A DNA stretch of 64,000 bases, from the IMG/VR virus record IMGVR_UViG_3300033069_002010; one strand, written 5' to 3'. This stretch comes from a virus. Lineage: Duplodnaviria > Heunggongvirae > Uroviricota > Caudoviricetes. The notes under the pieces were generated by a model. The model made no database searches, was not told the DNA's origin, and saw only the letters and a list, made by a program, of their open reading frames with translations. Shown here piece after piece: positions 8,222-51,462 of this stretch. The stretch's first letter is position 1. Every line of letters begins with the position of its first letter. The position numbers and the translations under genes are program-made.

Positions 8222-8321
8222 ATTACTATATATTATTTTTAAATTTTCATTTTAAGAATTTTACTCAGACATTTTACTGGACAATGGACTATATATAATA
8301 TATACTATAAAAACCAAAGTA

Positions 8322-9965: not shown

Positions 9966-9983
9966 TTCAAAAATCACCTTTTC

Positions 9984-10964: not shown

Positions 10965-10987
10965 TTTGGAAATATAATATATACGAC

Positions 10988-12956: not shown

Positions 12957-13560
12957 TCTGTTTCTTGATATAGGAAAGTATTATCATTTTTCTGACCTCA
13001 CTGTCCTTCTGCTGATGCCAGTTCCAGGTGAACGTGTTTTCCAGAAAGGCCGATCGGTTCTTGATATCTCCAATCTCACCCTTTATCCGATCCGCCTCGT
13101 CTTCCGATATGTCGAACGGTATGTTAAGCTTGTCGCAGATGCTGAGCATCTTGATAAGATTGTCGGTGTCATAGGCCTGTTGGGCCTCAAGATAAAGACT
13201 GTTCAGATACAAATCGTTTCTCTTGTCGGGATGGGTTGATTTGACAACCGAACGGTATAGGTTTTTTAGTTTCGGATCCTTGGTATTTGAAACATAATCG
13301 CCCTCAATGGGGACGGGATCGGATTCCCGAACGGGAACCTCGACAGTCTTAATGGGATCGGGAAAGTTCCTCTGTGACGTTTTCTCATCAAAAACTGATT
13401 TCAAATCGGGGTGCGATTCCAGAAACAGATTGACATCGTTTATGAATTCCTGATCCAGATGGGTTAGATATTCGGATTTGAACTGGAGATCCGAACTGAC
13501 GAAATCGAATTCCTTTATTAGTCTGGTGACTTCCAATTTTTTTAGGTGTTCCACATCCAT
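12949..13560 (-). CDS. J-domain (DnaJ-like) protein
   Basis: LKNLYRSVVKSTHPDKRND...EAQQAYD contains the HPD tripeptide in a J-domain-like context. Confidence 0.5.
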   Translation of the reverse strand: MDVEHLKKLEVTRLIKEFDFVSSDLQFKSEYLTHLDQEFINDVNLFLESHPDLKSVFDEKTSQRNFPDPIKTVEVPVRESDPVPIEGDYVSNTKDPKLKNLYRSVVKSTHPDKRNDLYLNSLYLEAQQAYDTDNLIKMLSICDKLNIPFDISEDEADRIKGEIGDIKNRSAFLENTFTWNWHQQKDSEVRKMIILSYIKKQII

Positions 13561-13610
13561 ATATATCGAAAACCAACAAATATGATTAAAAAATTTTTAT
13601 ATATAGTTTT

Positions 13611-18046: not shown

Positions 18047-18300
18047 TGTATTTAGAAGAACAATCATTACCGGAAATCCACTACATGACACACCTACATG
18101 ATTATGACGAGGATTACGTCAAATATGAGGAAAAGATATTGAACTCAACCCTGAGTCCGTATATGTTCTCCAATGATCTGATGAACGGATTCCTTCAGAG
18201 AATCCAAAGGCTTGTAAGCATACTTTTCGACAACTTCAACATCATAAAAAATTTCAAGAACTACAACGTCGATAAATACTATTACAAACACAAACACTAA
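18046..18300 (+). CDS. small hypothetical protein
   Basis: 84 aa; its start overlaps the stop of the preceding gene. Confidence 0.35.
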   Translation: MYLEEQSLPEIHYMTHLHDYDEDYVKYEEKILNSTLSPYMFSNDLMNGFLQRIQRLVSILFDNFNIIKNFKNYNVDKYYYKHKH

Positions 18301-18331
18301 TAATAATGGATGAAATTTAAAAAACCATTAT

Positions 18332-19006
18332 TTGATAATAATATATAAGAATATAAAAGAAAAATCCTTTAAAATGATAAGAAAAAACGAAGAGACGGGT
18401 AAGGAACCACAGAAAATAAATTCCTTCAAGAGGTTTTCCGAACTGAGCACCAAAACCAAAGAACCCAAGGAAAACCCTTCAACCCCCGTATTGCCTGAAA
18501 CCGACGATGACAGACCGGCCAATCCGAATCTTCCGTATGAAAAAGGAAAGATGGAAAAGCCCGCGTCAACCAAATACCTGAAACCACAGGTTCCCGAAGC
18601 CGAAGCTCCTGAAACCAACGAAAAGACCGATGTAAAGTTCTACGGAAAGATAGCCAAACTCCCTAAAGGAACCAAGGCATCCAAGGGATACAACTTTCTA
18701 GAAAACGTGAAGGTATCCAAATCATCGATTTGGTACATCATGGTCGAAAAAATGGACAACGAGCTCCAGATGGTTAAATACAACCATAAGAAAGGTGTGG
18801 ACCTGAACAAGTTCATCACGGACCTGAAAATCTACTACAAGGAAAAATATTCGGGAAACAAGGAAATGGTCAAGATGATCGAGAACATCCAAATAGACGG
18901 AAACGACAAGTACAGTTGGATAAAAAACATACCCCTGATTGAGGTTGACGGAAGAAAGATGATTTCGAGAATAACCGAAGATCTAATAAAACTTTTAAGC
19001 AAATAA
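18332..19006 (+). CDS. hypothetical protein
   Basis: 224 aa; Pro/Glu-rich N-terminal half. Confidence 0.45.
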   Translation: MIIIYKNIKEKSFKMIRKNEETGKEPQKINSFKRFSELSTKTKEPKENPSTPVLPETDDDRPANPNLPYEKGKMEKPASTKYLKPQVPEAEAPETNEKTDVKFYGKIAKLPKGTKASKGYNFLENVKVSKSSIWYIMVEKMDNELQMVKYNHKKGVDLNKFITDLKIYYKEKYSGNKEMVKMIENIQIDGNDKYSWIKNIPLIEVDGRKMISRITEDLIKLLSK

Positions 19007-22723: not shown

Positions 22724-23743
22724 ATGCAGATCAGAAAATACGAATCATTCATCGAGGAACCAGTAAACGAGGAACTTATCGGGGAAATAATAAAAGCGGC
22801 CAAGGGAGCACTAAAGGGGTTCCTGACCAACATAACCACCCCCTTCAAAAACCTGAAGGATGACTTCAAAAAAGGTCTGAAAACCGAACAAGCGAAGACC
22901 AGATTCATTCAGGGTCTTGACACAATATTGAAAAATGCCACCGATGGTATACAGAAGGCCAAGGACGAAGCCGAAATAAACTCGATGACGGACGCTTTCT
23001 TCAAGCAGATAGCCGAACAGGAAGCCGATTTCGACAAGGAAATAAAATCGATCAAGGAAGGTGCCGAACAGACACCAGGAACTAGAGGACAGGCAAAGAA
23101 CGCGATGATTGCTGGAAAGGTTATGATGGGAATGGTAAAGGACCAGTTTCAAAAGATGAAAGTAGAATTCGACAAGAGGTACGCATCTGCAAAAGACTTG
23201 GCAGCAAAGAAACAGGTAGCCATACAGAGACTAAGGGACACGATTGAAACAACCAAAAAGAAGCTCAACGATCCAAAAACCTTAGAAACAGCAATCCAGA
23301 CATACAAAAACGAAAACAAGATTGATGGTGGATCATCAGCCGGAATTTCAGTTGATATACTAAAGACATACAATTCCACCAAATCGGAAGAATTGGTTGG
23401 AAAGGAAGTCAGATACAAAACCAAAAAATACGACCCCAACAAGAAACCAGAAGAGCAACCGGAAAACATAGGGAAATTGAAAGTTCTTAGAGTAGATTCA
23501 GACGGAATTTTCTTTGATGGGGAAAGGGAAGACTTCAAGAAGCCGTTTGACCAAATCCTCCCCACTACTGAATCGGGAGCGAATGCAAAAAAAGCACAAG
23601 AAGTACTAACAAGAATCAAAAACGATGATGATAAAATGGGAAAGATCGCCAAGTTCGCCGAGTTTGTAGAAAAAGACGAAAATAAGGATAAGGTTGCCGA
23701 AATAGAAAAAATAATAGGGGGATTAACAACCCCAACTGCATAA
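22724..23743 (+). CDS. lysine-rich charged protein (MQIRKYESFIEE N-terminus)
   Basis: 339 aa. Confidence 0.5.
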   Translation: MQIRKYESFIEEPVNEELIGEIIKAAKGALKGFLTNITTPFKNLKDDFKKGLKTEQAKTRFIQGLDTILKNATDGIQKAKDEAEINSMTDAFFKQIAEQEADFDKEIKSIKEGAEQTPGTRGQAKNAMIAGKVMMGMVKDQFQKMKVEFDKRYASAKDLAAKKQVAIQRLRDTIETTKKKLNDPKTLETAIQTYKNENKIDGGSSAGISVDILKTYNSTKSEELVGKEVRYKTKKYDPNKKPEEQPENIGKLKVLRVDSDGIFFDGEREDFKKPFDQILPTTESGANAKKAQEVLTRIKNDDDKMGKIAKFAEFVEKDENKDKVAEIEKIIGGLTTPTA

Positions 23744-24476: not shown

Positions 24477-25199
24477 TTTGATCAGGTATTCTTCAAGAAT
24501 ATCTCTGAAATCATGACACTTGTGGACCTTTACATCATTGGGACCGATGTAGAAAATATACCCGACATGAACATCAATCCCGATTTCCTTCAGTATCAGC
24601 GAATACAGTGAAATCTGTATCGAGTATTCGTTAAGATGGCATTTGTCGAATTCCTGAAAAGGATCGAGAAGCTTTTCACCATAATCGTTTACAGTCTCAA
24701 ATTTCTTGTTCGTTTTCCAGTCGACTATTACAACCCTATCCTTGTAAAGGAAAAGGGAATCTATCATACCAGCAATGTTCCATTTTCTAGAAAAGATCCT
24801 TTGTTCGAATTTTACCGGAGTAAGTTTGTGAAGATGGGTTCCAAAAAGAGTATTGAACTTGTTTATCCTGTCTATGACATCTAGGTCAGCAGGTAGTGTC
24901 TGGTAAATTCCGTTGAAATAGTTTTCAATCCAATTATGTGTGGCGGTCCCAACCTCATTCGCCCTGTTGTTGATCTGCTTCCATCTCGAAAGCATCTCAG
25001 CCTGGGTTATACCCTCCTGTTCAGCCTTCTTCTTTGACCAGAAATCCTGATCAAATTCCTTATGAAACCTTGATATGAATTGGGTGACTGATATGTAGTG
25101 ATTACCGTCATACGTGTATTTGTGTTTGACGGGGTCAAACCTGAATTTCGGATCATCATACGATTCTAATAATTTCAAGACAGTTTCTCTCATAAACAT
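24465..25199 (-). CDS. PD-(D/E)xK nuclease (RecB/Cas4-like)
   Basis: GMIDSLFLYKDRVVIVDWKTNKK resembles the RecB-family D...hhhDYKT motif. Confidence 0.5.
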   Translation of the reverse strand: MFMRETVLKLLESYDDPKFRFDPVKHKYTYDGNHYISVTQFISRFHKEFDQDFWSKKKAEQEGITQAEMLSRWKQINNRANEVGTATHNWIENYFNGIYQTLPADLDVIDRINKFNTLFGTHLHKLTPVKFEQRIFSRKWNIAGMIDSLFLYKDRVVIVDWKTNKKFETVNDYGEKLLDPFQEFDKCHLNEYSIQISLYSLILKEIGIDVHVGYIFYIGPNDVKVHKCHDFRDILEEYLIKSGI

Positions 25200-25247
25200 A
25201 TATATGAGAGAAACTGTCTTTTGTTTCTATGACATCATGTTAGACTA

Positions 25248-26558
25248 TCAAAGATCATCAAAGTATCCGATACTCGATCCGATACTCGACCCCACATCAA
25301 CAGGCATCCACCACCGGTTTTTAGGACTGTTAAATTTATTCTTCCTAGCCTCATCCTGAGCCCTTTTCCTTTCAACCCTTGTGTGAATCATTTCCCACTC
25401 GTTCAGATTCGGATCGACATATATCCAATCCCTGAGTTCATCATGGTAAACTGCATCTGTTCTAAGAATATGGGCATCATATATCTCGGAATAAACAACA
25501 CCATTACAAACGGTCCATATCTTCCGGTCCTTGATGTAGACCATCTCACTCGGATACCAATATGTGTGGTTTAGACCGTCCTCACGAAGAAAGTCTCGAG
25601 GCTGACAATACCCATCTCCACTCGAAATGGTTATGATATCAACATTCTCTGGAATGTGATTATATATGGTATTATTACTCCTGTCCAAAAACTTGAAAGT
25701 GTCCATGTAAGGATACATCTCGAAGTCCGAATGGTCAAGCTTGATATGACCACGTATCAACGATTCCTGACCCTTTGAAAGAAAAAACATGGTGTTGTTC
25801 CATTTCTGCTCTTTCTTGTAAATAAAACCATTATCATCAGCATACTTACGAAAATGATACAGATATTCCTCATCGTTTATCGTGTAAATCCTATCGAGGA
25901 CATTATAGGTCTTTTCACCATCTGTCATCCCATGCCACATGAGAGCCCTACCAACGAGAAGGTTCCCGTTCATCATACAAAGCATCTTGACCTGATTGGG
26001 ATTTTGGACGTAAATGTCCATATATTTCTGACACGAACTGTGTTTCATACAGGAGTTACCCAAAGATGATGACTGATCGTAGTAGTTGTGATGATGATAC
26101 CATTTCCTAACATCCTCGCCCTGAACCACTTTAAACTGGAACACAGGAGCCGATTGGATGTTTCGGTAAAGTGTGGAAAAAAGTTCCACCTCCTTGTCGG
26201 AAATGTCTTTGAAAATCTTCCTGACGAAAGAGCCGGGTTTGGCGTAAATACGCTTGCTAGTCCCCCAAACATTATCAGTATCGAATCTGTCTTTAGTTAG
26301 ATATGATATTTTGGTCCTATCAGCAGAAGATACACCTATGTAGTTAACATGGTTGTCGACTAGAATTTCGATAGGAAGTCTCTGTTTGAGAAGCAGTTGA
26401 GCCACTTCAGATGAAGTCATCTGAACTAACACTGATTCAAATTCGGGAGAAATAAAAATATCTGAAGTTTTGCGGATATACGGCATTTGGAAAAGATTTC
26501 TACAAATATAGGTAAAATAGTTATTAAAATTACTTTTCTGAGAAGACCATTTCAACAA
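25248..26558 (-). CDS. hypothetical protein
   Basis: 436 aa. Confidence 0.5.
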   Translation of the reverse strand: MLKWSSQKSNFNNYFTYICRNLFQMPYIRKTSDIFISPEFESVLVQMTSSEVAQLLLKQRLPIEILVDNHVNYIGVSSADRTKISYLTKDRFDTDNVWGTSKRIYAKPGSFVRKIFKDISDKEVELFSTLYRNIQSAPVFQFKVVQGEDVRKWYHHHNYYDQSSSLGNSCMKHSSCQKYMDIYVQNPNQVKMLCMMNGNLLVGRALMWHGMTDGEKTYNVLDRIYTINDEEYLYHFRKYADDNGFIYKKEQKWNNTMFFLSKGQESLIRGHIKLDHSDFEMYPYMDTFKFLDRSNNTIYNHIPENVDIITISSGDGYCQPRDFLREDGLNHTYWYPSEMVYIKDRKIWTVCNGVVYSEIYDAHILRTDAVYHDELRDWIYVDPNLNEWEMIHTRVERKRAQDEARKNKFNSPKNRWWMPVDVGSSIGSSIGYFDDL

Positions 26559-26862
26559 GTTCTAAAACTCGATTCCGATTGTTGATTTTAGAGTTCCCGA
26601 CAAGTTTAATCACTTCCTGTTTAGTCGATCCCGATTTTTTCAATTTAAGGATAGCACTACACATCTTCTCATCCTCCTTAGTAAGCTTTGCAGTATATTT
26701 TTGGTAAACCTCCTTAGGAATTGTTGAGACAGGAGGAGTCCCAACAACAGATTTCTCCTTCAACTGTTCAATAGTAATCCTCTTCGCAGAAGGAACATGA
26801 TTGACTTCAAACTCCTTTGAAATATCCTTAATCCCTAATATTTTCTTTATTATGTTCATCAT
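26530..26862 (-). CDS. hypothetical protein (possible HTH)
   Basis: 110 aa. Confidence 0.35.
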   Translation of the reverse strand: MMNIIKKILGIKDISKEFEVNHVPSAKRITIEQLKEKSVVGTPPVSTIPKEVYQKYTAKLTKEDEKMCSAILKLKKSGSTKQEVIKLVGNSKINNRNRVLELVEMVFSEK

Positions 26863-27347
26863 ATGTGGTTAAATGTTAATAATCTTATTTCCTTGTTGTT
26901 ATGAAGCTTCTTGAAACCATAGTACATCCTCTGACCTTCATTGGTCAAGTCACGGAAACCACATACCCACATCCGGTCGTTCTTATGGAAATAGGTCAGG
27001 TTAGACCACCCGATACAAACTGAGGAGATCAAATTGATTGACTTGTTTTTAAAAAGATCATCTTCGGATGATATGTTCGGAAAATACAACCTATCATATT
27101 CATCATTTATCCTCTGACTTTCTATCAGATTATCCAAATCCTGATCGGAATCCAATTCCGGACGATTGTCTACATCATCTGAATAAAATCCAGGAAGATC
27201 GAGAGTTATGTGAGATAGTTCAGAGTCCACATTCTTGGGTTCGAATGCAATCAAATAAACCATGGTTTTCCCAACATTTCTACCGTGAAAGAAATGACTA
27301 CTCGGATGGGGAAAGTTTACAAAACCACTGTTGTCTTCTTTGAACAT
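26859..27347 (-). CDS. hypothetical protein
   Basis: 162 aa; ATGA overlap with the downstream gene. Confidence 0.4.
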   Translation of the reverse strand: MFKEDNSGFVNFPHPSSHFFHGRNVGKTMVYLIAFEPKNVDSELSHITLDLPGFYSDDVDNRPELDSDQDLDNLIESQRINDEYDRLYFPNISSEDDLFKNKSINLISSVCIGWSNLTYFHKNDRMWVCGFRDLTNEGQRMYYGFKKLHNNKEIRLLTFNHI

Positions 27348-27398
27348 AGAATGTAAAAATATGAAAAATAATACTGAAAAAAAAAATATATATACTCT

Positions 27399-27881
27399 AT
27401 GATTTTAAGATATAGAAAATTCATGGAGGGTTATGACAAAGATATCCTTAAAATGATTAAGGACTTAGCCGATAAGACAAATACCCTTAAAAAATCAATC
27501 ATCAAATCACTTACCCCAAATGAGGTTTATGAGGACTACTTTCTCGAATTTATCGAGAATGAAAGTTTCACTTACCATATCTATAACACACACAATATAT
27601 TAATGACCATTGACCTTAAAAAGAAAATGCATAGACCCAAAAATATCAAATCTGAAACAGAAAGATACCTTAGGAAATCATCGATGATAATCAAAAGACT
27701 GGAAAGCATGTTCCCAGACTCAAGGTGTCATTTCGAGATGAAACTAAACGGAAAGGTTCAGGCTATACAGAGGGGTTATGACCGAAAAGATGATATCCTT
27801 ACATTTACCGGAATCGGAGATCCTAACCCATACGAACCTAAGGGAACCGTAATCGTCAAAATAACCTTCCATATAGCATAA
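27399..27881 (+). CDS. hypothetical protein (MILRYRKFMEGY N-terminus)
   Basis: 160 aa. Confidence 0.45.
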   Translation: MILRYRKFMEGYDKDILKMIKDLADKTNTLKKSIIKSLTPNEVYEDYFLEFIENESFTYHIYNTHNILMTIDLKKKMHRPKNIKSETERYLRKSSMIIKRLESMFPDSRCHFEMKLNGKVQAIQRGYDRKDDILTFTGIGDPNPYEPKGTVIVKITFHIA

Positions 27882-27910
27882 AAAATACCGGTTAGACCGG
27901 TATTTTTTTC
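27881..27910. terminator. bidirectional intrinsic terminator
   Basis: A5, stem TACCGGT/ACCGGTA, then T7, between convergent genes. Confidence 0.6.
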
Positions 27911-29367
27911 ATCATACTACCAATTCTATCCGAAACTTCGGTTTTTGGGAGTATAGACATCACGGTCATAAGATCTGGTCCCGGAACCCCACCCGTAAGG
28001 GCCATCCTCAAGTCAGGCATAACCTTTCCCATCTTGATCCCTAGATCCTGACAAATGTCATGGATTGACTGCTTGATAGAATCAACAGTCCAATCGATTC
28101 CATCAATATTCCCGAGAAAGACATCAAACACCCGAATGAAATCAGGATTTGTCTTATCCGAACTGACCCTGACTGGATTTACGAATATGTCAACCACCGA
28201 TTGGAGATCCGTCGTGAAAACACTTCTTTTCTTAGCAAGGTCAATAATCCTCGATTTGTCGGAGAGACTGAAATCGGTTCCTTTGAAATCGACGCGAGTC
28301 ATCAGGTAATCGTCAGACCTCAGGTTATTGAGATACCACGAGTTGAAATGTTTTGCCTTGTCCATATCGAACCTAGCTCCGTGCTTGTGGACACGATCAA
28401 GGGAGAACTGAGAGATCAGATCATCCATAGAAAATATTTCATTTGTTCCAATAGGAGACCAACCTATAAGACTCAGGTTGTTTATGAACACATCAGCGTC
28501 AAATCCATATTCCTTCCAACCATCAACCCATTTTCCATCGGAATCCACATACCCGATTGGAGAGATCGGAATACCGTATTTGGAGGCTGTCCTCTTGGAA
28601 AGCTTTCCCTTACCATCCGGGTTCATGATAAGGGGAAGATGACCGAAAGTCGGAATATCCCATCCGAAAGCCTTGTAGAGGAGGATATGGAAAGGTGTTG
28701 ACGCGACCCATTCCTGTCCTCTCAGGACATGGGTGACTCCCATATCATGATCGTCGGATGTGTTGGCCATGTGATAACTGGCAATACCGTCGGACTTCAG
28801 GAGAACCTTGTCATCCAACTGATTGGAGCTGATAGTGATATCCCCGAGTATAGCATCGGTGAACGTGATATCAACATCGGTAGGAACCGCGAAACGAACC
28901 ACAAACTTATCTCCACTAGCGAGACGGGAGTCAACATCATCTTTTGCAAGGGTAAAAGAATTTTTCATGCAGAGACGGGTGGCTGCATCATACTTGAAAT
29001 TGGGAACGGACTTGTGGGCCTTATCCAAATCATCCTTAGTATCAAACGCGTAATAAGCAAATCCTTTGTCGATAAGGAACTTGATCTTGTCCGAATAATT
29101 CCTTTCAGTCTGGATGAAGGAACCTATGGTAGGATCTGGGTTCCAATAGGAGGCATCAGGTTGGATTCCTAACCAATCACACATCCTTTTGAAATAATCA
29201 AGGAAATTTGGGTTGTAACGATCACGGTCGGTATCCTCGAGGCGAACCAAAAACCTACCACCCGTCTGTTTGGCAAGGAAATAGTTGTAGAGAAGGGTTC
29301 TAACATTTCCGAGATGAACAAACGGTCCAGTCGGTGACGGCGCTATCCTTGTTACTATTTTACGCAT
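27892..29367 (-). CDS. gltX: glutamyl-tRNA synthetase, bacterial type
   Basis: RIAPSPTGPFVHLGN (HIGH region), THVLRGQEW, GKLSKR (KMSKS); C-terminus GKVMPDLRMALTGGVPGPDL matches the bacterial GluRS tail. Start moved to the internal Met (MRKIVTRIAPSPTG) because the upstream 44 codons are hydrophobic and non-homologous. Confidence 0.9.
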   Translation of the reverse strand: MRKIVTRIAPSPTGPFVHLGNVRTLLYNYFLAKQTGGRFLVRLEDTDRDRYNPNFLDYFKRMCDWLGIQPDASYWNPDPTIGSFIQTERNYSDKIKFLIDKGFAYYAFDTKDDLDKAHKSVPNFKYDAATRLCMKNSFTLAKDDVDSRLASGDKFVVRFAVPTDVDITFTDAILGDITISSNQLDDKVLLKSDGIASYHMANTSDDHDMGVTHVLRGQEWVASTPFHILLYKAFGWDIPTFGHLPLIMNPDGKGKLSKRTASKYGIPISPIGYVDSDGKWVDGWKEYGFDADVFINNLSLIGWSPIGTNEIFSMDDLISQFSLDRVHKHGARFDMDKAKHFNSWYLNNLRSDDYLMTRVDFKGTDFSLSDKSRIIDLAKKRSVFTTDLQSVVDIFVNPVRVSSDKTNPDFIRVFDVFLGNIDGIDWTVDSIKQSIHDICQDLGIKMGKVMPDLRMALTGGVPGPDLMTVMSILPKTEVSDRIGSMMKKIPV

Positions 29368-31033: not shown

Positions 31034-32911
31034 TTACGATTTCTTGGCCGTTTTCTCAGTCTCCGTTTTTTCCTGAATGATTTCAGGGACCTGTCCCTTC
31101 ATCATCTGCATCAGTTGGAGACCCATAAGTCCATCAAGAGAACCTCCACCGTTAGCCCCTCCCCCGATAAGGACATCAGGAATGACCTTAATCTTGTTGG
31201 CTCCGATCGATTCAGTAACCTTGAACTTGGTGAAGTTGTCCTCACCCATAGCCTCAACAGCCAACCTATAAGCCTCGGCCTCTGACTTACCAATCGCGAG
31301 CTTCTTAGAAGCTTCCGCATTACCAGTAACAGTGATTCGTTCAGCTTCAGCATTTGCTGACAGTTTTGTCGCCTTGGCTTTCGCTTCAGCGTCTAGTTCC
31401 ACAGCCTTAGCCCGACCTTCAGCTGCCTTTACTTCAGCCGCCGCGTTACGTTCGGCTATGTTCACCGACTGTTCAGACTTAACCACTTCCTTCTGCATGT
31501 CGGCTATCGCATTTGCTTTCTCAAACTCCTGACGTTTCGCCTGAGCCATACGCTGGGTATCATATGTGACCTGCTGCTCTTCCGCAATCTTACGGTCGGT
31601 AAGGGTCTTCATCAGACTTTCAGGTGGGGTGATGTCACCAATCAGGGTATCCACCGCATGTACGTTATACTCATCCAACACCATTGAAATATGTGATTTT
31701 GCCGATTCCTGACGCTCCTTACGGGTACTGAGGAACGCGATTACGTCACTGTCCTGGGCCGAGTTACGGAAATAGTTTCCGATTGTAGGTTCCAAAACCT
31801 GACTCACCAGGTTCTTCATGTTACCGAAACGAGCGATAACCTTAGGGGCCTCTGTCGATGGTACGTGAATAATCTGTGAAACATCAAGGTTAAATGGAAA
31901 ACCGTCCTTGGAACGAACCGTGATTGTACACAGTTTCTCATCAAGATTATGAGCCTCTGAACGAGCATTTGCCCAGTTCAATACAAGATTGGTTGTTGGA
32001 ACCAGTTCTACTCGCATCGTATGCGTATTTATAGGATACTTACCCGGACCGAGTGGTTCATTCCAAACACCCTTCTGTCCCTTAGAAACGATGTTTCCGT
32101 GTTTGAAGTCTGTACCAGTTACATCAACCCCGTCATCACCAACATATGATACAACCACACCAACATGTCCGATAGGGATTTCGGTCATTTTTACCTCTTC
32201 AACAATGACCGCCCAAGGGTTAATGTTGTAAGTACCCGCTAGGATGACTTCCTGTTGGAGACCCCTCTGACCCCCATTCTGAAGAAATGAGTCAAAGTCC
32301 TGGAACTTGTTATGATTTGGTACAATATCAGCCGCAATCTGACCCTCCTTGAGGGGAGCTCCATCAAGCGTAGTGACTACACCAACCGCATTATCATTGA
32401 CGGTTGTCTGGTCCGTGATTGAGATATCAAAAAGATGACGGTTGATACGGTAGGAACCTGCTACGAGAATAAGAGCCTGACGTCCTTTAGATCCCCCATT
32501 GGTAAGAAATTTCTCAGCATCCTGAAAAGAGTCGCAATCTACTCTCTTTCCGAGGATCTGACCATTTGACGGAACAACCCCATCCTTGGCTGATATAAGA
32601 CCGATTTTACCCTGAGGAATGACAGTAAAGTCAACTAAATTAATCTCGAACTGCCATGGCCAATATCCAAAATAAAGACCAGGTGCTAGAGTACTGGCCT
32701 GGAAACCAGCTTCACCTTTGGTGGCGATAATTCGCCCATCTGGAAGTGACTTATCCTTACCAAAAAGGACGAATTTTTTGGTAATGAGACCGATTTTCGA
32801 TTCGGGAACGATGACTACACCAAACAGACGGAATACCCATTTATACATTACAAGTGTAAGAACTACAGGAATAATCCACCAGTTGTGGAGAAAGAAATTG
32901 AAAAATGACAT
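31034..32911 (-). CDS. SPFH/band-7 (flotillin/YqiK-like) membrane protein
   Basis: N-terminal TM, SPFH core, and a long Ala/Glu/Lys-rich coiled-coil (EAERITVTGNAEASKKLAIGKSEAEAYRLAVEAMG) typical of the flotillin tail. Confidence 0.8.
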   Translation of the reverse strand: MSFFNFFLHNWWIIPVVLTLVMYKWVFRLFGVVIVPESKIGLITKKFVLFGKDKSLPDGRIIATKGEAGFQASTLAPGLYFGYWPWQFEINLVDFTVIPQGKIGLISAKDGVVPSNGQILGKRVDCDSFQDAEKFLTNGGSKGRQALILVAGSYRINRHLFDISITDQTTVNDNAVGVVTTLDGAPLKEGQIAADIVPNHNKFQDFDSFLQNGGQRGLQQEVILAGTYNINPWAVIVEEVKMTEIPIGHVGVVVSYVGDDGVDVTGTDFKHGNIVSKGQKGVWNEPLGPGKYPINTHTMRVELVPTTNLVLNWANARSEAHNLDEKLCTITVRSKDGFPFNLDVSQIIHVPSTEAPKVIARFGNMKNLVSQVLEPTIGNYFRNSAQDSDVIAFLSTRKERQESAKSHISMVLDEYNVHAVDTLIGDITPPESLMKTLTDRKIAEEQQVTYDTQRMAQAKRQEFEKANAIADMQKEVVKSEQSVNIAERNAAAEVKAAEGRAKAVELDAEAKAKATKLSANAEAERITVTGNAEASKKLAIGKSEAEAYRLAVEAMGEDNFTKFKVTESIGANKIKVIPDVLIGGGANGGGSLDGLMGLQLMQMMKGQVPEIIQEKTETEKTAKKS

Positions 32912-33032
32912 AAAAATGATTTGATGATTTCCTACTCTTTGATGGGATTTTCGGATTACTCCCTGTTATTTTGGCGCCAATAACCTTACAAAGGTAAATT
33001 TTTTATCTTAATAAAACAAAAAACAATAAAAA

Positions 33033-36646: not shown

Positions 36647-36697
36647 AATATATGATAAAAAGTGAAACCCCTTTTTGAGAGGGGTTTCAAATCCACG

Positions 36698-40216: not shown

Positions 40217-40498
40217 TTAAAAATCATCATCAAATTCTTCCTCATCGTAATCATCATCTTCCTCATCATCTTCCCCATACATGTCCTCATAGTCGTGATA
40301 CTCTAGGACATCATTTTTCTCGAAAAAAGAGATGAGTTCCTTAACCTCTTTCGGTGTAAGCCCACCGTCCTTTATGCGAATAACATCCTGTTCGGGATTA
40401 GACCAATATATCTTCCCATCATCCTGAAGTCGATTTAACCTATCATAGACAATTTCCGAATCGGAACACTCATCCAAACTGTAATACTTTGCAATCAT
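40217..40498 (-). CDS. acidic hypothetical protein
   Basis: 93 aa; poly-acidic C-terminus. Confidence 0.4.
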   Translation of the reverse strand: MIAKYYSLDECSDSEIVYDRLNRLQDDGKIYWSNPEQDVIRIKDGGLTPKEVKELISFFEKNDVLEYHDYEDMYGEDDEEDDDYDEEEFDDDF

Positions 40499-40528: not shown

Positions 40529-40759
40529 TTAAAAATCAGGAACTTGTATCTCAGGACCAACTCTCTCTATATCATCAATATAGATACCCATAGAAGAAGA
40601 ATCCCCCATTCCACCAGGAAGAAAACAACAATCATCATCATATTTGGAATGCATGTACCAACAAGGTGTGGGACTTTCATACCCACGTATCAGAACCCAA
40701 TACCAACCAGACTTGGTTGGAAATTCGACACTCTCAAACACTTTTTTAATTTTAGACAT
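40529..40759 (-). CDS. small hypothetical protein (MSKIKKVFESVEF N-terminus)
   Basis: 76 aa. Confidence 0.35.
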   Translation of the reverse strand: MSKIKKVFESVEFPTKSGWYWVLIRGYESPTPCWYMHSKYDDDCCFLPGGMGDSSSMGIYIDDIERVGPEIQVPDF

Positions 40760-41492
40760 CTTTGAATTTTTTATTTATTAAATAATTTGATAAAATCGGT
40801 TTTTTTTCAGTATCCTCCCATTTACAAGCAACCCTCAAATCATCACCAATAAGAGCCACTGTGATATATGTGTTCTCACCACACCTGAAAGTGGCGGTGG
40901 TTTCCTCAAGCTTGATCGGTTCAATCTCCTTTTCGGGATCACAGTCGAAGTTATCGATTTCCTTGATGAAATCAAAAGTTTCGGTTTTATAGTATTTTCC
41001 CTTCAAAAGTTTCAGAAACGGATCGGTGATTTTCAAAACCTCATTTTTCCTTACCCCATGAACATCCTTATACTTGAATCCTATGGTTATGTGCAGATCT
41101 ATCTCAGGAAGCCCATATCTCTTCCTAACCTCCTGGAGTTTTTCCGAACGGACCACCACAAAATATGCCCGGTTTCCAGACCTTTCCGCAGTTCCGATTC
41201 CCATCATCTGAACATCATCGAATTCGAAATCGAACACCGACTCAAGTGAGTTGACAAACCTATCAGGTCCCATCTCTTTCAAGATTCGGTTGTAATCCAT
41301 GACATTTATTACAGTTATATGATAATGCCCTTGATCCCTGTTTTGCTGATATTGGGTATATACGGTAAATTCCTCGTCACCAAGTATCCCCCTCATCTGT
41401 TCGAGATAAGGATGGATAGAGTCTTTCCAAATGTTTACTCCGACATAATTATTCCCAACTGTGTCCTTAATGTATTCTACTCTGTAAATCAT
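40752..41492 (-). CDS. 2H phosphoesterase (LigT / cyclic phosphodiesterase-like)
   Basis: Two H-x-T-x motifs (GHYHITV and DLHITIG) about 90 aa apart; ATGA overlap with the upstream CCA-adding enzyme gene. Confidence 0.55.
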   Translation of the reverse strand: MIYRVEYIKDTVGNNYVGVNIWKDSIHPYLEQMRGILGDEEFTVYTQYQQNRDQGHYHITVINVMDYNRILKEMGPDRFVNSLESVFDFEFDDVQMMGIGTAERSGNRAYFVVVRSEKLQEVRKRYGLPEIDLHITIGFKYKDVHGVRKNEVLKITDPFLKLLKGKYYKTETFDFIKEIDNFDCDPEKEIEPIKLEETTATFRCGENTYITVALIGDDLRVACKWEDTEKKPILSNYLINKKFKDV

Positions 41493-42697
41493 ACAATCAT
41501 TTTTTTGAATTCCTCAGTCTCAAGTCTCTTAATCTCCTCCCCAAGAGCCTTACCCCTAATTCCACTAGACATGAGGTCATCAGCCGAAACCGTTGGAACA
41601 TATTCGACAAACTTCCGAAACATCCTATCCCTAACAAGGTTACAGTCTAACCATTCAAGGATGACCGAATTGTCGATGTGACACTTTATTTTCCTCTTAT
41701 ACATCTCAAAAACGTTATCAGGAGTCAATCCCAAAAGAGATATCAGGAAAACCGACTTGTCAGCGACATCCCCTTCGATCTTGAATTCCTGGACCAGTTT
41801 CCTTTCCAAGATCTTCGGATCTTCCTTCCTGAAAAGGTTGGCTAATATGACCACCATATTTGACGAATCGATAAGATCTGTGTTTATCAGACATCCGGGA
41901 AAAACTACATCCCAGAGCCCCAAATCGGTGAAATACTGGAGATAACTATTGAAATCAAGAGTCTTCTTCTTGGTATACGAATGTGCCTTCTTGATCTCCT
42001 CCCAAATCCTTTCACGGGAAATGATATTCAGATCGTTCTTCCTGTCACGGATCGCGTCAAGTGATTTCGGATCCACACTGAAACTATATCTGAACGCAAA
42101 CCTGATGAGTCTCAGGATACGCAGAGGATCTTCCTTGATTCTGAGTTCGGGATCACCGAGAAAACGGGCGACACGGTTTTTTATGTCATCCATACCACCA
42201 ACCAAATCGACTATAGATTTGGTGTCCAAATCATAAAACAAAGCGTTGAAAGGTATGTCACGACGCTTAACGTCGTTTTCTATCGTGGTGAACCTCACAT
42301 CAGGATTCCTAGTCGTTCCAAGCACTGCCGAAACACCAGTCTTACCAGCTTCCGAGGCATATATATCCTCCCTGAAAGTGGCGATCTCCATACCCAAAGG
42401 CTGGTCATCGGTATATACTACAACTACCCCGAAAGCCTTACCCTGAAGGTTCGTCGAATATCCTTCAGATTTAAGGATCGAGACAACCTCATCGGGAACA
42501 GCGTCGGTGGCCAAATCAAAATCCTTAGGTTGGTCACCAATAAGGAAATCCCTGACCGAACCCCCAACCACAAAAAGTTTCTTTCCGTTTGATTGGAAAA
42601 TCCGATGGAGTTCCTTGACCGAATCGGGAATAAGATTCCACATATCAGAATCCCTTTGGTTTTCTAGAAATTTTTCGTAATTTACTAATACTTTCAT
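41489..42697 (-). CDS. cca: CCA tRNA nucleotidyltransferase
   Basis: LFVVGGSVRDFLIGDQPKDFDLATDAVPDEV head-domain signature. Start moved to the internal Met (MKVLVNYEKF); the first M at 42775 adds a hydrophobic 26-aa extension that overlaps the divergent gene. Confidence 0.85.
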   Translation of the reverse strand: MKVLVNYEKFLENQRDSDMWNLIPDSVKELHRIFQSNGKKLFVVGGSVRDFLIGDQPKDFDLATDAVPDEVVSILKSEGYSTNLQGKAFGVVVVYTDDQPLGMEIATFREDIYASEAGKTGVSAVLGTTRNPDVRFTTIENDVKRRDIPFNALFYDLDTKSIVDLVGGMDDIKNRVARFLGDPELRIKEDPLRILRLIRFAFRYSFSVDPKSLDAIRDRKNDLNIISRERIWEEIKKAHSYTKKKTLDFNSYLQYFTDLGLWDVVFPGCLINTDLIDSSNMVVILANLFRKEDPKILERKLVQEFKIEGDVADKSVFLISLLGLTPDNVFEMYKRKIKCHIDNSVILEWLDCNLVRDRMFRKFVEYVPTVSADDLMSSGIRGKALGEEIKRLETEEFKKMIV

Positions 42698-42720
42698 TGA
42701 AACAAAGTTAATCAAAATTT

Positions 42721-42736
42721 TTAATATATATATTAA
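42721..42736. promoter_or_regulatory. palindromic TTAATATATATATTAA element in a divergent promoter region
   Basis: Perfect 16-nt palindrome between divergent starts at 42697 (minus) and 42738 (plus). Confidence 0.4.
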
Positions 42737-42737
42737 T

Positions 42738-43235
42738 ATGAAAGACATTAAAAAGTTTGAGGCGTTTGGTGACATTTATCCCGAAACCAGGTTGGACTAC
42801 GACTGGAAAAGGGAATTTCTCGAAATACGGGAACTTTTCTACAACATCGAGGAAAATCTACCCGATGAGAGTTTGGTCGACTTTTCGGCTGGATGGAGGT
42901 CATCGATGAATAACCAAATGTTCCCATGTTACATAAATAAGGCGGGCGAGATTATGGGGAATGACGAAGTGATAGAAAAAACCTGCGGCACATACGCCAA
43001 CTTTCTCATAAGAATCACTATAGAACCGAGATTCAAAACCCGTAACTACTCCCCATTCAAAATCTCAAATTCCGAGTCCTTTTTCGGGGAAAACGCTCAA
43101 ATCGTGGTAGACATAATATCAAGACTCAAATACATAACAAAAGGACTGAACGAATACTCAATGGGGATAACATTCAAAGATAATCTCATCTATATATATT
43201 TTTTAAGAAACAACAACGAAAGAAAACAGATATGA
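42738..43235 (+). CDS. hypothetical protein (MKDIKKFEAF N-terminus)
   Basis: 165 aa. Confidence 0.45.
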   Translation: MKDIKKFEAFGDIYPETRLDYDWKREFLEIRELFYNIEENLPDESLVDFSAGWRSSMNNQMFPCYINKAGEIMGNDEVIEKTCGTYANFLIRITIEPRFKTRNYSPFKISNSESFFGENAQIVVDIISRLKYITKGLNEYSMGITFKDNLIYIYFLRNNNERKQI

Positions 43236-44029
43236 CCGAAAAAATAAAAAAAGCCTATGACCTAGCTAAATGGGCTCACGAAGGACAGACAAGAAAATTT
43301 ACAGGAAAACCGTATTTCGATGAACATGTCGTCAAGGTTTGGGAGGAAACGAAACGATACGGGGCCACCGAAGAAGAGGAATGTGCATCGCTGCTCCACG
43401 ACACGGTTGAGGACCAGCCCGATAAGGTAAGCCTAAAAATGATCGAAGAGGAATTCGGACCAAAAGTCTCTGGATACGTCGGAGAACTGACATCAGACGA
43501 GGATAGAATAAGGGAAATCGGAAAAGCCCAATACATGAAGGAAAAACTTTCCAAAATATCACTAGGATCACTCAAGGTCAAACTAGCCGATAGGAAATGC
43601 AACATTTCCGACATGATGACGGCTCCCGAAAAATTCAGGAACAAATACTACCCAGAGACAAGAACGATGATGGAAGGACTGGAAGGAAGGAATCTTCCCG
43701 AAGCCCAGGAAAAATTGGCCGATGACATAAACCAAATCCTAGACGAGGTTAAGTCGAAATTTTTTGAATCCAAGAAACACTCATTAAAATATATAAAATT
43801 GTACGAAGACTTTAAACAGAACAACATAACCCACGACGATATCATAAAATGTATAGACTCAGGTGGAGTTATATATGCCAACATAGTTAGGAATTTTCCT
43901 GAAAACGTTCCCGAAGAACCTCTTCACCCAGTATCAGTTGATGATGATGGGTTAATAACCGTTGAGAAAGAAGGGAGAAACTATGAAGTAGATATAAGAG
44001 ATGTCAAGAAAATAGAATATAACAAATAA
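43232..44029 (+). CDS. HD-domain (p)ppGpp hydrolase, SpoT/RelA-N-like small alarmone hydrolase
   Basis: AHEGQTRKFTGKPYFDEHVVKV...ASLLHDTVED matches the SpoT HD hydrolase signature (H...GQ.R..G.PY..H...VA...HD..ED). Confidence 0.7.
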   Translation: MTEKIKKAYDLAKWAHEGQTRKFTGKPYFDEHVVKVWEETKRYGATEEEECASLLHDTVEDQPDKVSLKMIEEEFGPKVSGYVGELTSDEDRIREIGKAQYMKEKLSKISLGSLKVKLADRKCNISDMMTAPEKFRNKYYPETRTMMEGLEGRNLPEAQEKLADDINQILDEVKSKFFESKKHSLKYIKLYEDFKQNNITHDDIIKCIDSGGVIYANIVRNFPENVPEEPLHPVSVDDDGLITVEKEGRNYEVDIRDVKKIEYNK

Positions 44030-49567: not shown

Positions 49568-50503
49568 ATGACTAATATGGAAATTGAAAAACTCTCACAC
49601 ATTATTATCCAGGAAAGATTACACATAAATACAAACATGGACAGACTTACCGATTATCTATATGATCGAATAAAAGGAAAAACTGGAATCCATGTGATTA
49701 AAAACAATGTCCCTGAATTGGATATCGACAAGGTAATCTTCGACATCTCCAAGAAATATACCAACACAGGAGAATTAAGTATAAACAAATCATACAAAGG
49801 TAAAAATGGGTGGGTATTTTACGTGTACCTAACTGTTCCGTTCTTTTCCGATACTGTCAAACATGAGATGGACCATGCATTACGACTTATGGTGAAACCT
49901 AGAGAGGACATACTGAATAATCTTAATTTCTTAAAATCAAAAATGATATTCAAAAACGAAAATCAAATAGACTTCTTTTTCTATATGATATACTTATCCT
50001 CAGATGAGGAGATTAACTCAATGATAAAGGAGTCGTATGGTGATGTTAGGGAGTTCATGAAAAATAACTCAGTCTCCTCCCTGAATAGGGATCAATTTAT
50101 TTATATAATAAAGACCACAAGACCATTTCTGAAATCTGAGGATATGATTAATTTCAATCTAAAGAAGTGCTTTGCCAGCTTCACAGTGAACCAGATAAAC
50201 AAATTGTTTTACATATACGAAAATAACAAAAGGGATTTGGATAGGATAAACAGATTTCCATCGTTTTTACGAAAAATAAAACTGATAATAAAAGGATTGA
50301 GAACTTGGCGTAGTCTCCTACTACGTCATTGTGGTGGCCTCTCTCTCTATTTTCGAAGGGTCGCATCATTTTCACCTGTAGACATAGAGAACACCGATAG
50401 TCATATCTATCCAAAATCGAAATTCGACTATGAGAAATATATTAAAAGTCAAGGGTATAAACTGAGAAGATCACTATACAAATTATACGATCACTTCACC
50501 TAA
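49568..50503 (+). CDS. hypothetical protein with HEMDH motif
   Basis: 311 aa; an isolated HExxH (TVKHEMDHAL). Confidence 0.4.
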   Translation: MTNMEIEKLSHIIIQERLHINTNMDRLTDYLYDRIKGKTGIHVIKNNVPELDIDKVIFDISKKYTNTGELSINKSYKGKNGWVFYVYLTVPFFSDTVKHEMDHALRLMVKPREDILNNLNFLKSKMIFKNENQIDFFFYMIYLSSDEEINSMIKESYGDVREFMKNNSVSSLNRDQFIYIIKTTRPFLKSEDMINFNLKKCFASFTVNQINKLFYIYENNKRDLDRINRFPSFLRKIKLIIKGLRTWRSLLLRHCGGLSLYFRRVASFSPVDIENTDSHIYPKSKFDYEKYIKSQGYKLRRSLYKLYDHFT

Positions 50504-51462
50504 AATCCCAAAATCGATTTTATAACCCCCATCTTTTTGGAAGCGATCCTGGAGGCTTTCTCACTACCTATTTTAAGAACTCCATCCAAATAAGTTTTGT
50601 CCTTTATTATCTTATCGTATTCGATTCTCGGCTTTTCGAAATGTTCCATTATCTTTTCGAAAAGGGCCGATTTGGCTTCGGAATACATGATGCCGTCACT
50701 GTATCTCGATTTCATAACCTCAATTTCGGTCTCGTCCGAAAAAAGACTGTAAATTTTGAACACGTTGCAGTTTTCGTAATCCTTGGGATCGTGTATGCCC
50801 GCACTGTTGGTGACTATGCGGTTGATGGTTTTCCTGAGAGTCTTCTCATCGGAAAACGGATCGATGCAGTTGTCGTAGCTTTTCGACATCTTGCGTCCGT
50901 CGATTCCGGGAACAATCATCTGATTCTCGATTATGAACGATTCGGGAACGGTGAAATAATGACCGTATTGGTTGTTGAACTTGGTCGCGATGTCCCTGGT
51001 CATTTCAAGGTGCTGTTTCTGATCCTTTCCGACGGGTATCAGATCCGCGTCGTAGAGAAGAATGTCGGCAGCCATCAGGACAGGATAGGTGAACAGACCC
51101 ACGTTTATGTCGGACAGGTTCTCAGACTTGTCCTTGAAGGAATGGGCTCCCGTCAGCATGGTATAGGGTGTCATGCAGGACAGGTAGAACTGAAGCTCGC
51201 AGACCTGCGGAACGTCGGACTGCTTGAACAGGATGTTGCGTCTGTAGTCGAAACCCAAGGCAAGAAAAGTGGCAAGGGCCGAATGGATATTGTCCTTTCG
51301 GACTTTGGCATCCTTTATTGTGGTCATCGAGTGTATGTCGGCGATGAACAGTATGGTTCTGTTCTCCCGTTTGGAAAAGTCAAGTATCGGTTTTATAGCC
51401 CCGAAATAGTTTCCGAGATGTGGTTTGCCGCTCGATTGGATTCCCGTAAGTATGGTTTTCAT
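50500..51462 (-). CDS. trpS: tryptophanyl-tRNA synthetase
   Basis: ILTGIQSSGKPHLGNYFGAI (HIGH region) and GRKMSKSYDN (KMSKS). Confidence 0.9.
   Translation of the reverse strand: MKTILTGIQSSGKPHLGNYFGAIKPILDFSKRENRTILFIADIHSMTTIKDAKVRKDNIHSALATFLALGFDYRRNILFKQSDVPQVCELQFYLSCMTPYTMLTGAHSFKDKSENLSDINVGLFTYPVLMAADILLYDADLIPVGKDQKQHLEMTRDIATKFNNQYGHYFTVPESFIIENQMIVPGIDGRKMSKSYDNCIDPFSDEKTLRKTINRIVTNSAGIHDPKDYENCNVFKIYSLFSDETEIEVMKSRYSDGIMYSEAKSALFEKIMEHFEKPRIEYDKIIKDKTYLDGVLKIGSEKASRIASKKMGVIKSILGF

Follow-up and report, generated by a model that had tools for sequence, protein, structure and literature searches.

The stretch of DNA analyzed here (the window, 64,000 nucleotides) derives from a Mahaphage-like huge phage, whose host appears to belong to the Bacteroidota. 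It encodes an HD-less tRNA nucleotidyltransferase of the CCA-adding type, immediately followed by a 2H phosphoesterase of the 2H-SAK family. We tentatively propose that the 2H protein replaces the HD domain in a tRNA 3'-end repair performed by this pair. The observed basis for this proposal is the gene structure, the fold and motifs of the 2H protein, its family membership, the synteny of the two genes throughout one clade, the HD-less character of the CCA enzyme, and the association of the 2H-SAK family with RNA repair.

The 2H phosphoesterase domain occupies residues 1-150 of a 246-aa protein (41043..41492, minus strand). The first-pass annotation had assigned a 2H fold to this protein, and structure prediction bore this out, revealing the bilobed alpha+beta 2H fold. 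The two H-x-T motifs, H58-I-T60 (41313..41321, minus strand) and H134-I-T136 (41085..41093, minus strand), are invariant in 42 homologues, and likewise in a set of 15 sequences that includes relatives of 33-50% identity. The protein matches the Pfam 2H-SAK model PF22547 with 74.5 bits (gathering cut-off 27, E=1.2e-20), a model carried by all 120 homologues among the matches listed, and membership of this family is also upheld by structure. A weak match to Pfam tRNA_lig_CPD (E=0.021) was detected as well. No sequence-level match was found to the LigT Pfam families, and searches of PDB sequences with the single sequence and with a profile returned nothing significant. We infer that the protein is a 2',3'-cyclic phosphodiesterase. 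Its C-terminal domain (aa ~155-246; 40752..41030, minus strand) is confidently modeled as two helices, a four-strand meander and a helix, with no family and no clear fold match. This domain is kept across the ~246-aa architecture and is absent from 2H relatives of 148-155 aa, including two (L037 and L038) that still adjoin a CCA gene. The window protein consists of these two domains alone, and no fused phosphatase, kinase or ATP-grasp RNA ligase was found in it.

The upstream gene encodes a class II tRNA nucleotidyltransferase (41489..42697, minus strand) of 402 aa. The mechanical open reading frame runs to 42775; Met27 was chosen as the start from an alignment of 19 clade members. The protein displays the class II CCA hallmarks, namely the Pol-beta head motifs and the RNA-binding neck. 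The original class II assignment is upheld by the Pfam matches to PF01743 (E=1.3e-28) and PF12627 (E=4e-6) and by the residues of the GGxVRD, DxD, TFRxD, RRD and EDxxR motifs, which are invariant across the 19 aligned enzymes. No HD domain was detected by Pfam in the window enzyme at E<=0.1, or in the CCA proteins of two relatives (L001 and L002) at E<=0.01.

At the sequence level, score alone does not separate this enzyme from a poly(A) polymerase. Indeed, NCBIfam scored it highest with the pcnB subfamily, at 167 bits, CCA models reaching 134-140 bits; among PDB entries, E. coli PAP I came closest (E=1e-31), with CCA enzymes at 1.7e-28; and a long loop separates the TFRED and RRD motifs, as in PAP I. 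Were the enzyme a poly(A) polymerase, the pair would prepare and tag cyclic-phosphate-ended RNA fragments for decay, not for repair. However, every NCBIfam score lies under the equivalog cut-offs (NF008137, for the multifunctional Cca of E. coli type, gave 80 bits for a cut-off of 451), and the head domains of the two enzyme types are nearly indistinguishable. The position of GRRF, the basic signature of PAP I, reads GKAF in the window enzyme, and the clade has kept TFR-E/D, a basic/acidic motif that typifies CCA enzymes. Moreover, phage tRNAs require CCA addition, the matching PHROG family (2244, E=4e-51) is labeled 'tRNA nucleotidyltransferase', and huge-phage homologues are regarded and handled as CCA-adding enzymes (PMC7162821). 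We consider a poly(A) polymerase very improbable here.

The two genes share an ATGA stop/start overlap, read from the sequence (41489..41492, minus strand). This overlap had been viewed as a sign of translational coupling; it is real, but generic in this genome, since 4-bp overlaps occur in 6 of the 63 same-strand neighbouring gene pairs of the window. From 42697 down to 36698, the minus-strand genes are tightly packed, with gaps of -8 to +60 bp, and genes of unrelated function (IscA-like, CoaE) are just as closely spaced. The array, which starts at the CCA gene, is probably terminated by a strong terminator-like hairpin (36663..36689, minus strand; the 10-bp stem has 5 GC pairs, and a T tract is present). 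Downstream of the 2H gene, a 76-aa ORF (40529..40759) precedes the gene for a 93-aa protein with a strongly acidic tail (40217..40498, minus strand). The latter has no match in Pfam, PHROG or NCBIfam, and in relatives no other downstream neighbour accompanies the 2H gene as constantly: by tblastn and blastp, its gene lies directly 3' of 2H in most of the related loci L001-L047. On the other side of the pair, a divergent plus-strand gene (43232..44029) encodes a 265-aa protein composed of a RelA/SpoT-type HD phosphohydrolase domain (aa 1-145) and a module of ~80 aa. The aminoacyl-tRNA synthetases GluRS and TrpRS (the latter at 50500..51462) had been cited in support of a repair function; they are ordinary huge-phage translation genes located 8-13 kb away and provide no such support. 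The ORF at 22724..23743 was also tested as a TrpRS and ruled out.

The conservation of the pair was assayed across related loci. Scanning IMG/VR with the single 2H sequence gave no matches; relatives were recovered by an alignment-based scan. Of 39 distinct related loci, 32 (82%) have the CCA gene upstream of the 2H gene and in the same orientation. The two genes are adjacent in 14 of these, separated by one small ORF in 9, and 0.6-3.5 kb apart in the other 9. In the remaining 7 of the 39 clade loci, CCA is missing from the 2H neighbourhood, and on one contig (L027/L075) the two genes are ~50 kb apart. Their order persists while identity falls to 33% for the 2H protein and to 42% for the CCA enzyme, and a reciprocal search starting from CCA gave the same picture. 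Other neighbours turn over heavily, CoaE being kept in 5 loci and IscA in 6. The same block also retains the 93-aa acidic protein and a 206-aa protein. Outside this group, no 2H gene was found within 6 kb of CCA in ~60 more distant phage CCA loci, and none of 16 distant 2H loci has a CCA neighbour; the link is limited to one huge-phage clade. The claim that the two genes form a module is supported by their conserved order within the clade, but the linkage is confined to that clade and often broken by insertion, loss or relocation.

No CCA-2H fusion was detected among the best 150 of 1153 2H family representatives, and none of these 150 proteins exceeds 306 aa. Two long CCA-containing ORFs of other phages (L138 and L148) were considered as fusions and rejected: only the nucleotidyltransferase domain matched PDB sequences, and no HD region was found in them by phmmer with the fusion protein of LR756501 described below. 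An AbiEii-like nucleotidyltransferase gene beside 2H (L033/L050) was also set aside as restricted to a single lineage, an L001 ORF of equal length (319 aa) being unrelated.

Beyond the clade, independent lineages connect the 2H-SAK family with RNA-end healing. In two giant-virus proteins (L057 and L062), 2H is fused with a PTP phosphatase, a kinase and an RNA ligase in a single polypeptide, and in L059 with PTP. A gene for a Pnk-type kinase/HAD phosphatase abuts the 2H gene in L054 and is convergent to it in L061; judged by ORF size, L064-L067 have the same layout as L061. The partners of distant 2H-SAK proteins comprise Pnk-type kinase/phosphatase, PTP phosphatase and RNA ligase, and CCA is never among them. 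For jumbo phages, a part in RNA repair has been suggested both for 2H enzymes and for CCA enzymes (PMC7824862). In the window, which covers 64 kb of a much larger genome, Pfam detected no RNA ligase, Pnk kinase or HAD/PTP phosphatase among the ORFs scanned.

The 64-kb window contains no tRNA gene. In nine related loci, 17 tRNA genes lie 1.5-8 kb from the pair; as none of the 17 encodes CCA, the CCA enzyme already has routine work to do in maturing tRNAs. Phages carrying HDV-like 'theta' ribozymes, which trim tRNA 3' trailers, show a 250-fold enrichment of CCA enzymes (PMC10879173). The idea that 2H clears the cyclic phosphate left by such ribozymes was not supported: at gathering thresholds, Rfam detected nothing but tRNAs in the nine loci, and the 110 nt downstream of the 17 tRNAs are A/T-rich or terminator-like.

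In E. coli Cca, the HD domain clears 2',3'-cyclic phosphate and so allows tRNA ends to be repaired (PMC6961547). In a 735-kb relative (LR756501), a single protein of 1233 aa carries nucleotidyltransferase, RNA-binding and HD domains; two queries detected no 2H-SAK match in this relative. The pattern is complementary, with an HD-fused CCA enzyme without 2H on one side and an HD-less CCA enzyme with 2H on the other.

The substitution would be incomplete in one respect. Enzymes of the 2H superfamily leave a phosphomonoester; the HD domain of Cca removes the monoester too, which a 2H enzyme is not expected to do. The 2'- or 3'-phosphate left by the 2H enzyme still blocks or encumbers CCA addition, and no phosphatase is present within the module. 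A speculative candidate for the missing phosphomonoesterase is the RelA/SpoT-type HD protein of 265 aa (Pfam HD_4, E=2e-10; NCBIfam spoT_relA, E=8e-13). A conserved HD-CCA-2H trio was considered and rejected: outside the window, only L004 and L005 have the HD domain, and the sole conserved part of the protein is its last ~80 aa (aa 185-263), which occur by themselves as a small ORF in ~30 related loci. Another possible candidate, unlinked to the pair, is a 277-aa protein (11617..12450, plus strand) that might remove a 2'-phosphate. Its C-terminal half displays an ADP-ribosyltransferase (ART) fold closest to Tpt1, with the NAD-binding ART lobe, whereas its N-terminal 160 aa have a predicted topology that differs from Tpt1. 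At the sequence level, LYHxT...GLxP is the sole segment that aligns with Tpt1; Pfam gave no match at E<=0.01, and NCBIfam NF002014 gave 16.3 bits for a cut-off of 239. The Tpt1 resemblance noted in the first-pass annotation is real in terms of fold, but this ORF, 29 kb from the pair, is no close neighbour.

We suggest the following scheme. A long minus-strand transcription unit would encode the HD-less CCA-adding enzyme and then, immediately, the stand-alone 2H-SAK phosphodiesterase. A tRNA broken at its 3' end or close to it, whether through a metal-independent RNase or spontaneous transesterification, would be left with a 2',3'-cyclic phosphate, which the 2H enzyme would open. A phosphomonoesterase, either a host enzyme, the RelA/SpoT-type HD neighbour or the distant Tpt1-like protein, would strip the remaining 2'- or 3'-phosphate, and the CCA enzyme could then restore the missing nucleotides. 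The 2H protein would thus provide in trans the role played in cis by HD in E. coli Cca. That tRNA is the substrate of the 2H enzyme, that this enzyme cooperates with the CCA enzyme and that the pair serves counter-defence are presumed from the features described above. The notion of a tRNA 3'-end repair module agrees with the 2H fold, the repair context of 2H-SAK, the HD-less CCA enzyme and the clade-wide synteny, but the module itself lacks the phosphate-removal step. We regard as rather unlikely a more specific version, in which Bacteroidota huge phages would possess an acceptor-end repair pathway running from 2H-SAK through the NAD-dependent Tpt1-like protein or an HD enzyme to the HD-less CCA enzyme, as a counter-defence against nucleases clipping tRNA 3' ends.

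The main alternative, possible though less probable than the replacement of HD by 2H, is that the two proteins have independent jobs and an inherited synteny: CCA would mature phage tRNAs, and 2H would heal RNA, for instance after anticodon-loop cuts, on behalf of a ligase/Pnk pathway whose genes would lie in another part of the ~600-kb genome, as in canonical 2H-SAK systems. Inheritance alone could explain the linkage, because it is seen in one clade with conserved gene order, in a block that also keeps the 93-aa and 206-aa proteins. Several observations favor this alternative: the CCA-less tRNA genes near the module, the identity of the 2H-SAK partners outside the clade, and the mixed content of the tightly spaced array. 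Moreover, in many relatives unrelated genes, for example those encoding CHU_C/T9SS-domain proteins, are inserted between CCA and 2H, and in others CCA is lost or relocated. On the other hand, the ligase, kinase and phosphatase of such a pathway are absent from the scanned ORFs of the window, the same-strand CCA-then-2H order has persisted in 82% of loci despite the turnover of neighbours such as CoaE and IscA, and the complementary distribution of HD and 2H would not be expected. It is improbable, finally, that the 2H protein degrades small cyclic-phosphate molecules instead of healing RNA ends. The targets would be cyclic oligonucleotide immune signals (as for Acb1), 2',3'-cNMPs or the ADP-ribose 1'',2''-cyclic phosphate made by a Tpt1-type enzyme. 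Acb1 was not the closest relative of the 246-aa protein in sequence or structure.

If the pairing is functional, tRNA 3'-end repair would have arisen on at least two occasions with unrelated phosphoesterases, the HD domain in E. coli Cca and the 2H enzyme in these phages, and the 2H-SAK domain would have a second, ligase-independent role. Huge phages would then invest in tRNA 3'-end repair, an investment which, if real, points to nucleases of the host or of a competitor that attack the tRNA acceptor end during infection. The more specific Bacteroidota pathway, if true, would counter host nucleases clipping tRNA 3' ends, an anti-phage defence of a class not yet described for these hosts. A functional pair would also offer a simple system, of two or three proteins, in which to study how tRNAs ending in a cyclic phosphate return to service; in human cells, the step that resolves this phosphate ahead of TRNT1 has not been assigned to any enzyme (PMC8920990). 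If the pairing reflects inherited gene order only, the locus holds nothing beyond the usual translation and RNA-repair cargo of huge phages.

Among known systems, the 246-aa protein is related to the Swiss Army Knife (SAK) RNA repair proteins, reportedly described by Burroughs and Aravind in 2016, and belongs to the Pfam 2H-SAK family. Its distant relatives show the canonical fusion of 2H, PTP, kinase and RNA ligase. In contrast, the window has no fused or adjacent kinase, phosphatase or ligase, its protein has an extra C-terminal domain, and its partner is a CCA-adding enzyme, a combination seen in no other lineage sampled. The protein also differs from the LigT/ThpR 2',3'-cyclic phosphodiesterases, in having no LigT Pfam match and in this additional domain. 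In Rak2-like jumbo phages (121Q, XbC2), CCA is also surrounded by genes for RNA repair and NAD/ADPr processing: Nudix, and, in XbC2, an RNA ligase plus DUF2828 or, in 121Q, a macro domain protein. However, they belong to a separate clade and have no 2H gene beside CCA. Pfam detects no HD domain in the 121Q CCA enzyme either, although some records annotate it as 'multifunctional'.

As in T4 Pnk/Rnl1 and in yeast and plant Trl1, the proposed scheme would heal a cyclic phosphate end before a nucleotidyl-transfer enzyme acts. The CPD domain of Trl1 is itself a 2H enzyme, and the window protein weakly matches the corresponding Pfam family, whereas the phosphatase of T4 Pnk is an HAD enzyme. Unlike both systems, the scheme requires no 5'-kinase, and its final step would be a template-independent 3' nucleotide addition, not the ligation of two halves. 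The first-pass annotation described the module as distinct from T4 Pnk/Rnl, and no Pnk/Rnl-type genes were found among the scanned ORFs; it is not distinct from known biology, since E. coli Cca is accepted to act in repair in this very way, by combining cyclic phosphodiesterase activity with CCA addition. The window pair and E. coli Cca both unite a class II CCA nucleotidyltransferase with an enzyme opening 2',3'-cyclic phosphate, for the same proposed purpose, the repair of tRNA 3' ends bearing this group. They differ in that the window CCA enzyme lacks the C-terminal HD phosphohydrolase domain and that its putative phosphoesterase partner is a separate polypeptide with an unrelated, metal-independent 2H fold. 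The nucleotidyltransferase-HD fusion of E. coli is nevertheless retained in LR756501, itself a huge-phage relative. The CCA-2H pair plausibly repairs clipped tRNA ends, as a variant on a known idea.

The CCA-type open reading frame is located on the minus strand at 41489..42775 and is 428 aa long as called; when it is aligned with 18 relatives, each 369-409 aa long, the true start falls at Met27 (42697). The 246-aa 2H ORF (40752..41492, minus strand) follows, and the last two bases of its ATG start, TG, are shared with the TGA stop of the CCA gene (...ATGATTGTATGATTTAC... in the window sequence). The first-pass annotation described the two genes as translationally coupled. In the window, 18 of the 63 same-strand neighbour pairs overlap, 6 of them by 4 bp. 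Because such tight spacing is usual here, the ATGA overlap is a weak sign of a tie. CCA and 2H stand first in a closely spaced minus-strand array; behind them come ORFs of 76 aa and (acidic) 93 aa, an IscA-type Fe-S protein, a dephospho-CoA kinase (CoaE) and a conserved 206-aa protein, and a strong hairpin (36663..36689) closes the array.

The assignment of the 246-aa protein to the 2H superfamily was borne out: the protein has the 2H fold, whose absence would have refuted the first-pass reading. Residues 43-145 match Pfam PF22547, 'Swiss Army Knife, 2H phosphoesterase domain' (2H-SAK), with 74.5 bits (E=1.2e-20; cut-off 27 bits), and 42 homologues all keep the pairs H58/T60 and H134/T136 unchanged. 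A second domain, modelled with confidence, spans residues ~155-246; no family or fold match was found for it. The 246-aa architecture is shared by 381 proteins at E<=1e-3 in a 90%-clustered collection, and by 1153 representatives at 50% clustering. The best 150 of these 1153 are all too short for a CCA-2H fusion.

Conservation of the pairing was assessed by an alignment-seeded IMG/VR scan for 2H, which returned 64 loci. After merging near-identical copies, and counting in three INPHARED genomes, 39 distinct loci belong to the clade of the window, with 2H proteins 33-62% identical to its own. In 32 of them, a CCA gene precedes 2H on the same strand: the two are directly adjacent in 14 (among them L045, assigned manually on account of its split CCA gene), have one small ORF (61-600 bp) between them in 9, and stand 0.6-3.5 kb apart, with unrelated genes between, in 9. 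CCA is missing from at least 5 kb upstream of 2H in the other 7. On one contig of these 7, 281 kb long (IMGVR_UViG_3300036770_008729; loci L027 and L075), a clade-type CCA gene at ~96 kb and 2H at ~147 kb stand ~50 kb apart; therefore both genes can be retained without adjacency. In the reciprocal scan from CCA, 2H lies downstream of those CCA genes whose identity to that of the window is ~43% or higher, with two exceptions; at ~60 loci where this identity is 34-42%, no 2H-SAK gene occurs within 6 kb. No CCA gene was found in the retrieved flanks of 16 distant 2H-SAK loci. CoaE (5 loci) and IscA (6 loci) turn over faster than CCA; the acidic 93-aa and 206-aa proteins are kept in related loci as often as CCA or more, and the linkage of 2H to the acidic protein is at least as tight as to CCA. 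Thus the pairing is real and persistent, yet limited to one lineage, and that lineage conserves a larger block as well.

The acidic protein (40217..40498, minus strand) has an extremely acidic C-terminal tail and lies directly 3' of 2H in most related loci. It has no family match in Pfam, PHROG or NCBIfam and might mimic nucleic acid or act as a 2H partner. The divergent neighbour (43232..44029, plus strand, 265 aa) carries a RelA/SpoT-type HD domain. Only its last ~80 aa are kept across the clade, as a separate small ORF in ~30 related loci. The HD fusion to this module occurs only in the window and the related loci L004 and L005, and the idea of an HD-CCA-2H trio was therefore dropped, together with that of a CCA-2H fusion, for which searches were fruitless. 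At a locus without CCA (L033/L050, 6958..7917, plus strand), an AbiEii/MenT-like nucleotidyltransferase (PF08843, E=4e-7) lies directly 5' of 2H, in this lineage only. Three lineages have a CCA gene broken in two (L017/L019, 5464..7707; L031, 5965..7985; L045/L046, 5884..7996) by an ORF that is 225-349 aa long and lacks a Pfam match. This suggests that an intron or intein-type mobile element was inserted there.

Using tblastn, the 2H protein found matches only in three uncultured phage genomes of 635-642 kb. These fall in the set above 634 kb placed in the Mahaphage clade, with Bacteroidetes as predicted hosts (PMC7162821). CHU_C/T9SS-domain genes in related loci are consistent with such a host. 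Elsewhere in the window, GC falls to 0.274 within 8001..10000, over an ORF (8322..9965, plus strand) with DUF7487 and REase-like domains; DUF7487 recurs in three further ORFs, and GIY-YIG, NUMOD1 and intein matches are also present. These resemble mobile genes of the homing-endonuclease type. Immediately 5' of a 625-aa SPFH/Band-7 protein (31034..32911, minus strand) is a DUF805b RNA motif (Rfam RF02914, 44.3 bits, E=2.5e-9; 32929..32964, minus strand). Modules that combine SPFH/Band-7 with a cognate small RNA have been proposed to serve as scaffolds for RNA repair, so this pair may be relevant.

For the upstream protein, Pfam gives the poly(A) polymerase/CCA head domain (E=1.3e-28) plus the RNA-binding neck, and PHROG gives family 2244, 'tRNA nucleotidyltransferase' (E=4e-51). 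HMM and PDB scores do not tell a CCA enzyme from poly(A) polymerase I. The window protein and its 18 relatives share the residues of the GGxVRD, DxD, TFRxD, RRD and EDxxR motifs without variation, and motifs and context favour a predicted CCA-adding activity; a poly(A) polymerase is very improbable. In other lineages, the 2H-SAK domain heads ~840-aa proteins with a PTP-type phosphatase, P-loop kinase and RNA ligase in two giant-virus contigs (L057, L062) and is fused to a PTP-SAK phosphatase in a phage (L059). In two further jumbo-phage lineages (L054, L061) the gene abuts or is convergent to a T4 Pnk-like kinase/HAD-phosphatase gene, and four loci (L064-L067) have a layout like L061, judged by ORF size. 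These independent associations with phosphatase, kinase and ligase support a role in RNA-end healing, in which 2H-SAK would open 2',3'-cyclic phosphates ahead of the phosphatase; the same role was proposed for jumbo-phage 2H enzymes (PMC7824862). Action of the 2H enzyme on small cyclic-phosphate molecules seems unlikely.

The first-pass annotation read the gene pair as a tRNA 3'-end repair module. The observation was confirmed, and the interpretation is plausible and supported in part: we tentatively consider that CCA and 2H cooperate in such repair. 2H enzymes leave a 2'- or 3'-phosphomonoester; this product is expected here too, and the CCA-2H module contains no phosphatase. The adjacency could also be inherited synteny, with the two enzymes acting independently, an explanation only somewhat less probable. 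The conserved larger block is compatible with it, and the persistence of the pair is compatible with cooperation. CCA is encoded in none of the 17 tRNA genes found at nine related loci; therefore the CCA enzyme already has an ordinary maturation role. HDV-like theta ribozymes are known to flank tRNAs (PMC10879173), but clearing of their cyclic phosphates by 2H was discarded as an idea, no ribozyme being found beside tRNAs in related loci. A tRNA with anticodon CTA (amber-suppressor type; ARAGORN 'Pyl') lies ~1.5 kb 3' of 2H in one relative (L040, 10158..10230); at the corresponding position several others carry Met, Leu and Arg tRNAs, and CCA is encoded in none of these genes.

[quoted passage not shown] Domain search found no HD domain in the CCA enzymes of the window and two related loci (L001, L002). 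In contrast, a 735-kb relative (LR756501; L070, LR756501.1 145000-175000) encodes a 1233-aa fusion (9864..13565, minus strand) of a cytidine/adenosine-deaminase-like domain, CCA head, neck and HD (E=6e-10), and has no 2H-SAK match with either long or short family members as query. Such a complementary pattern, seen in very few independent genomes, is what would result if 2H had taken the place of HD by non-orthologous replacement. At the same locus, a 528-aa homologue (16903..18489, plus strand) of the Tpt1-like protein of the window lies 3.3 kb from the fusion, and 11 tRNA genes cluster a further 6-10 kb beyond (24876..28814). In the Rak2-like jumbo phages 121Q (L068) and XbC2 (L069), the neighbours of the CCA gene include Nudix and HPF genes; in 121Q a macro-domain gene is also close by, and in XbC2 an RNA ligase and DUF2828 lie ~4-6 kb upstream. 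Pfam detects no HD domain in the 121Q CCA protein, though some records name its homologue 'multifunctional ... phosphatase'. Altogether, the CCA-2H pair would not be a new kind of system but a variant of an established concept, exemplified by the HD-bearing Cca of E. coli and by jumbo-phage RNA repair.
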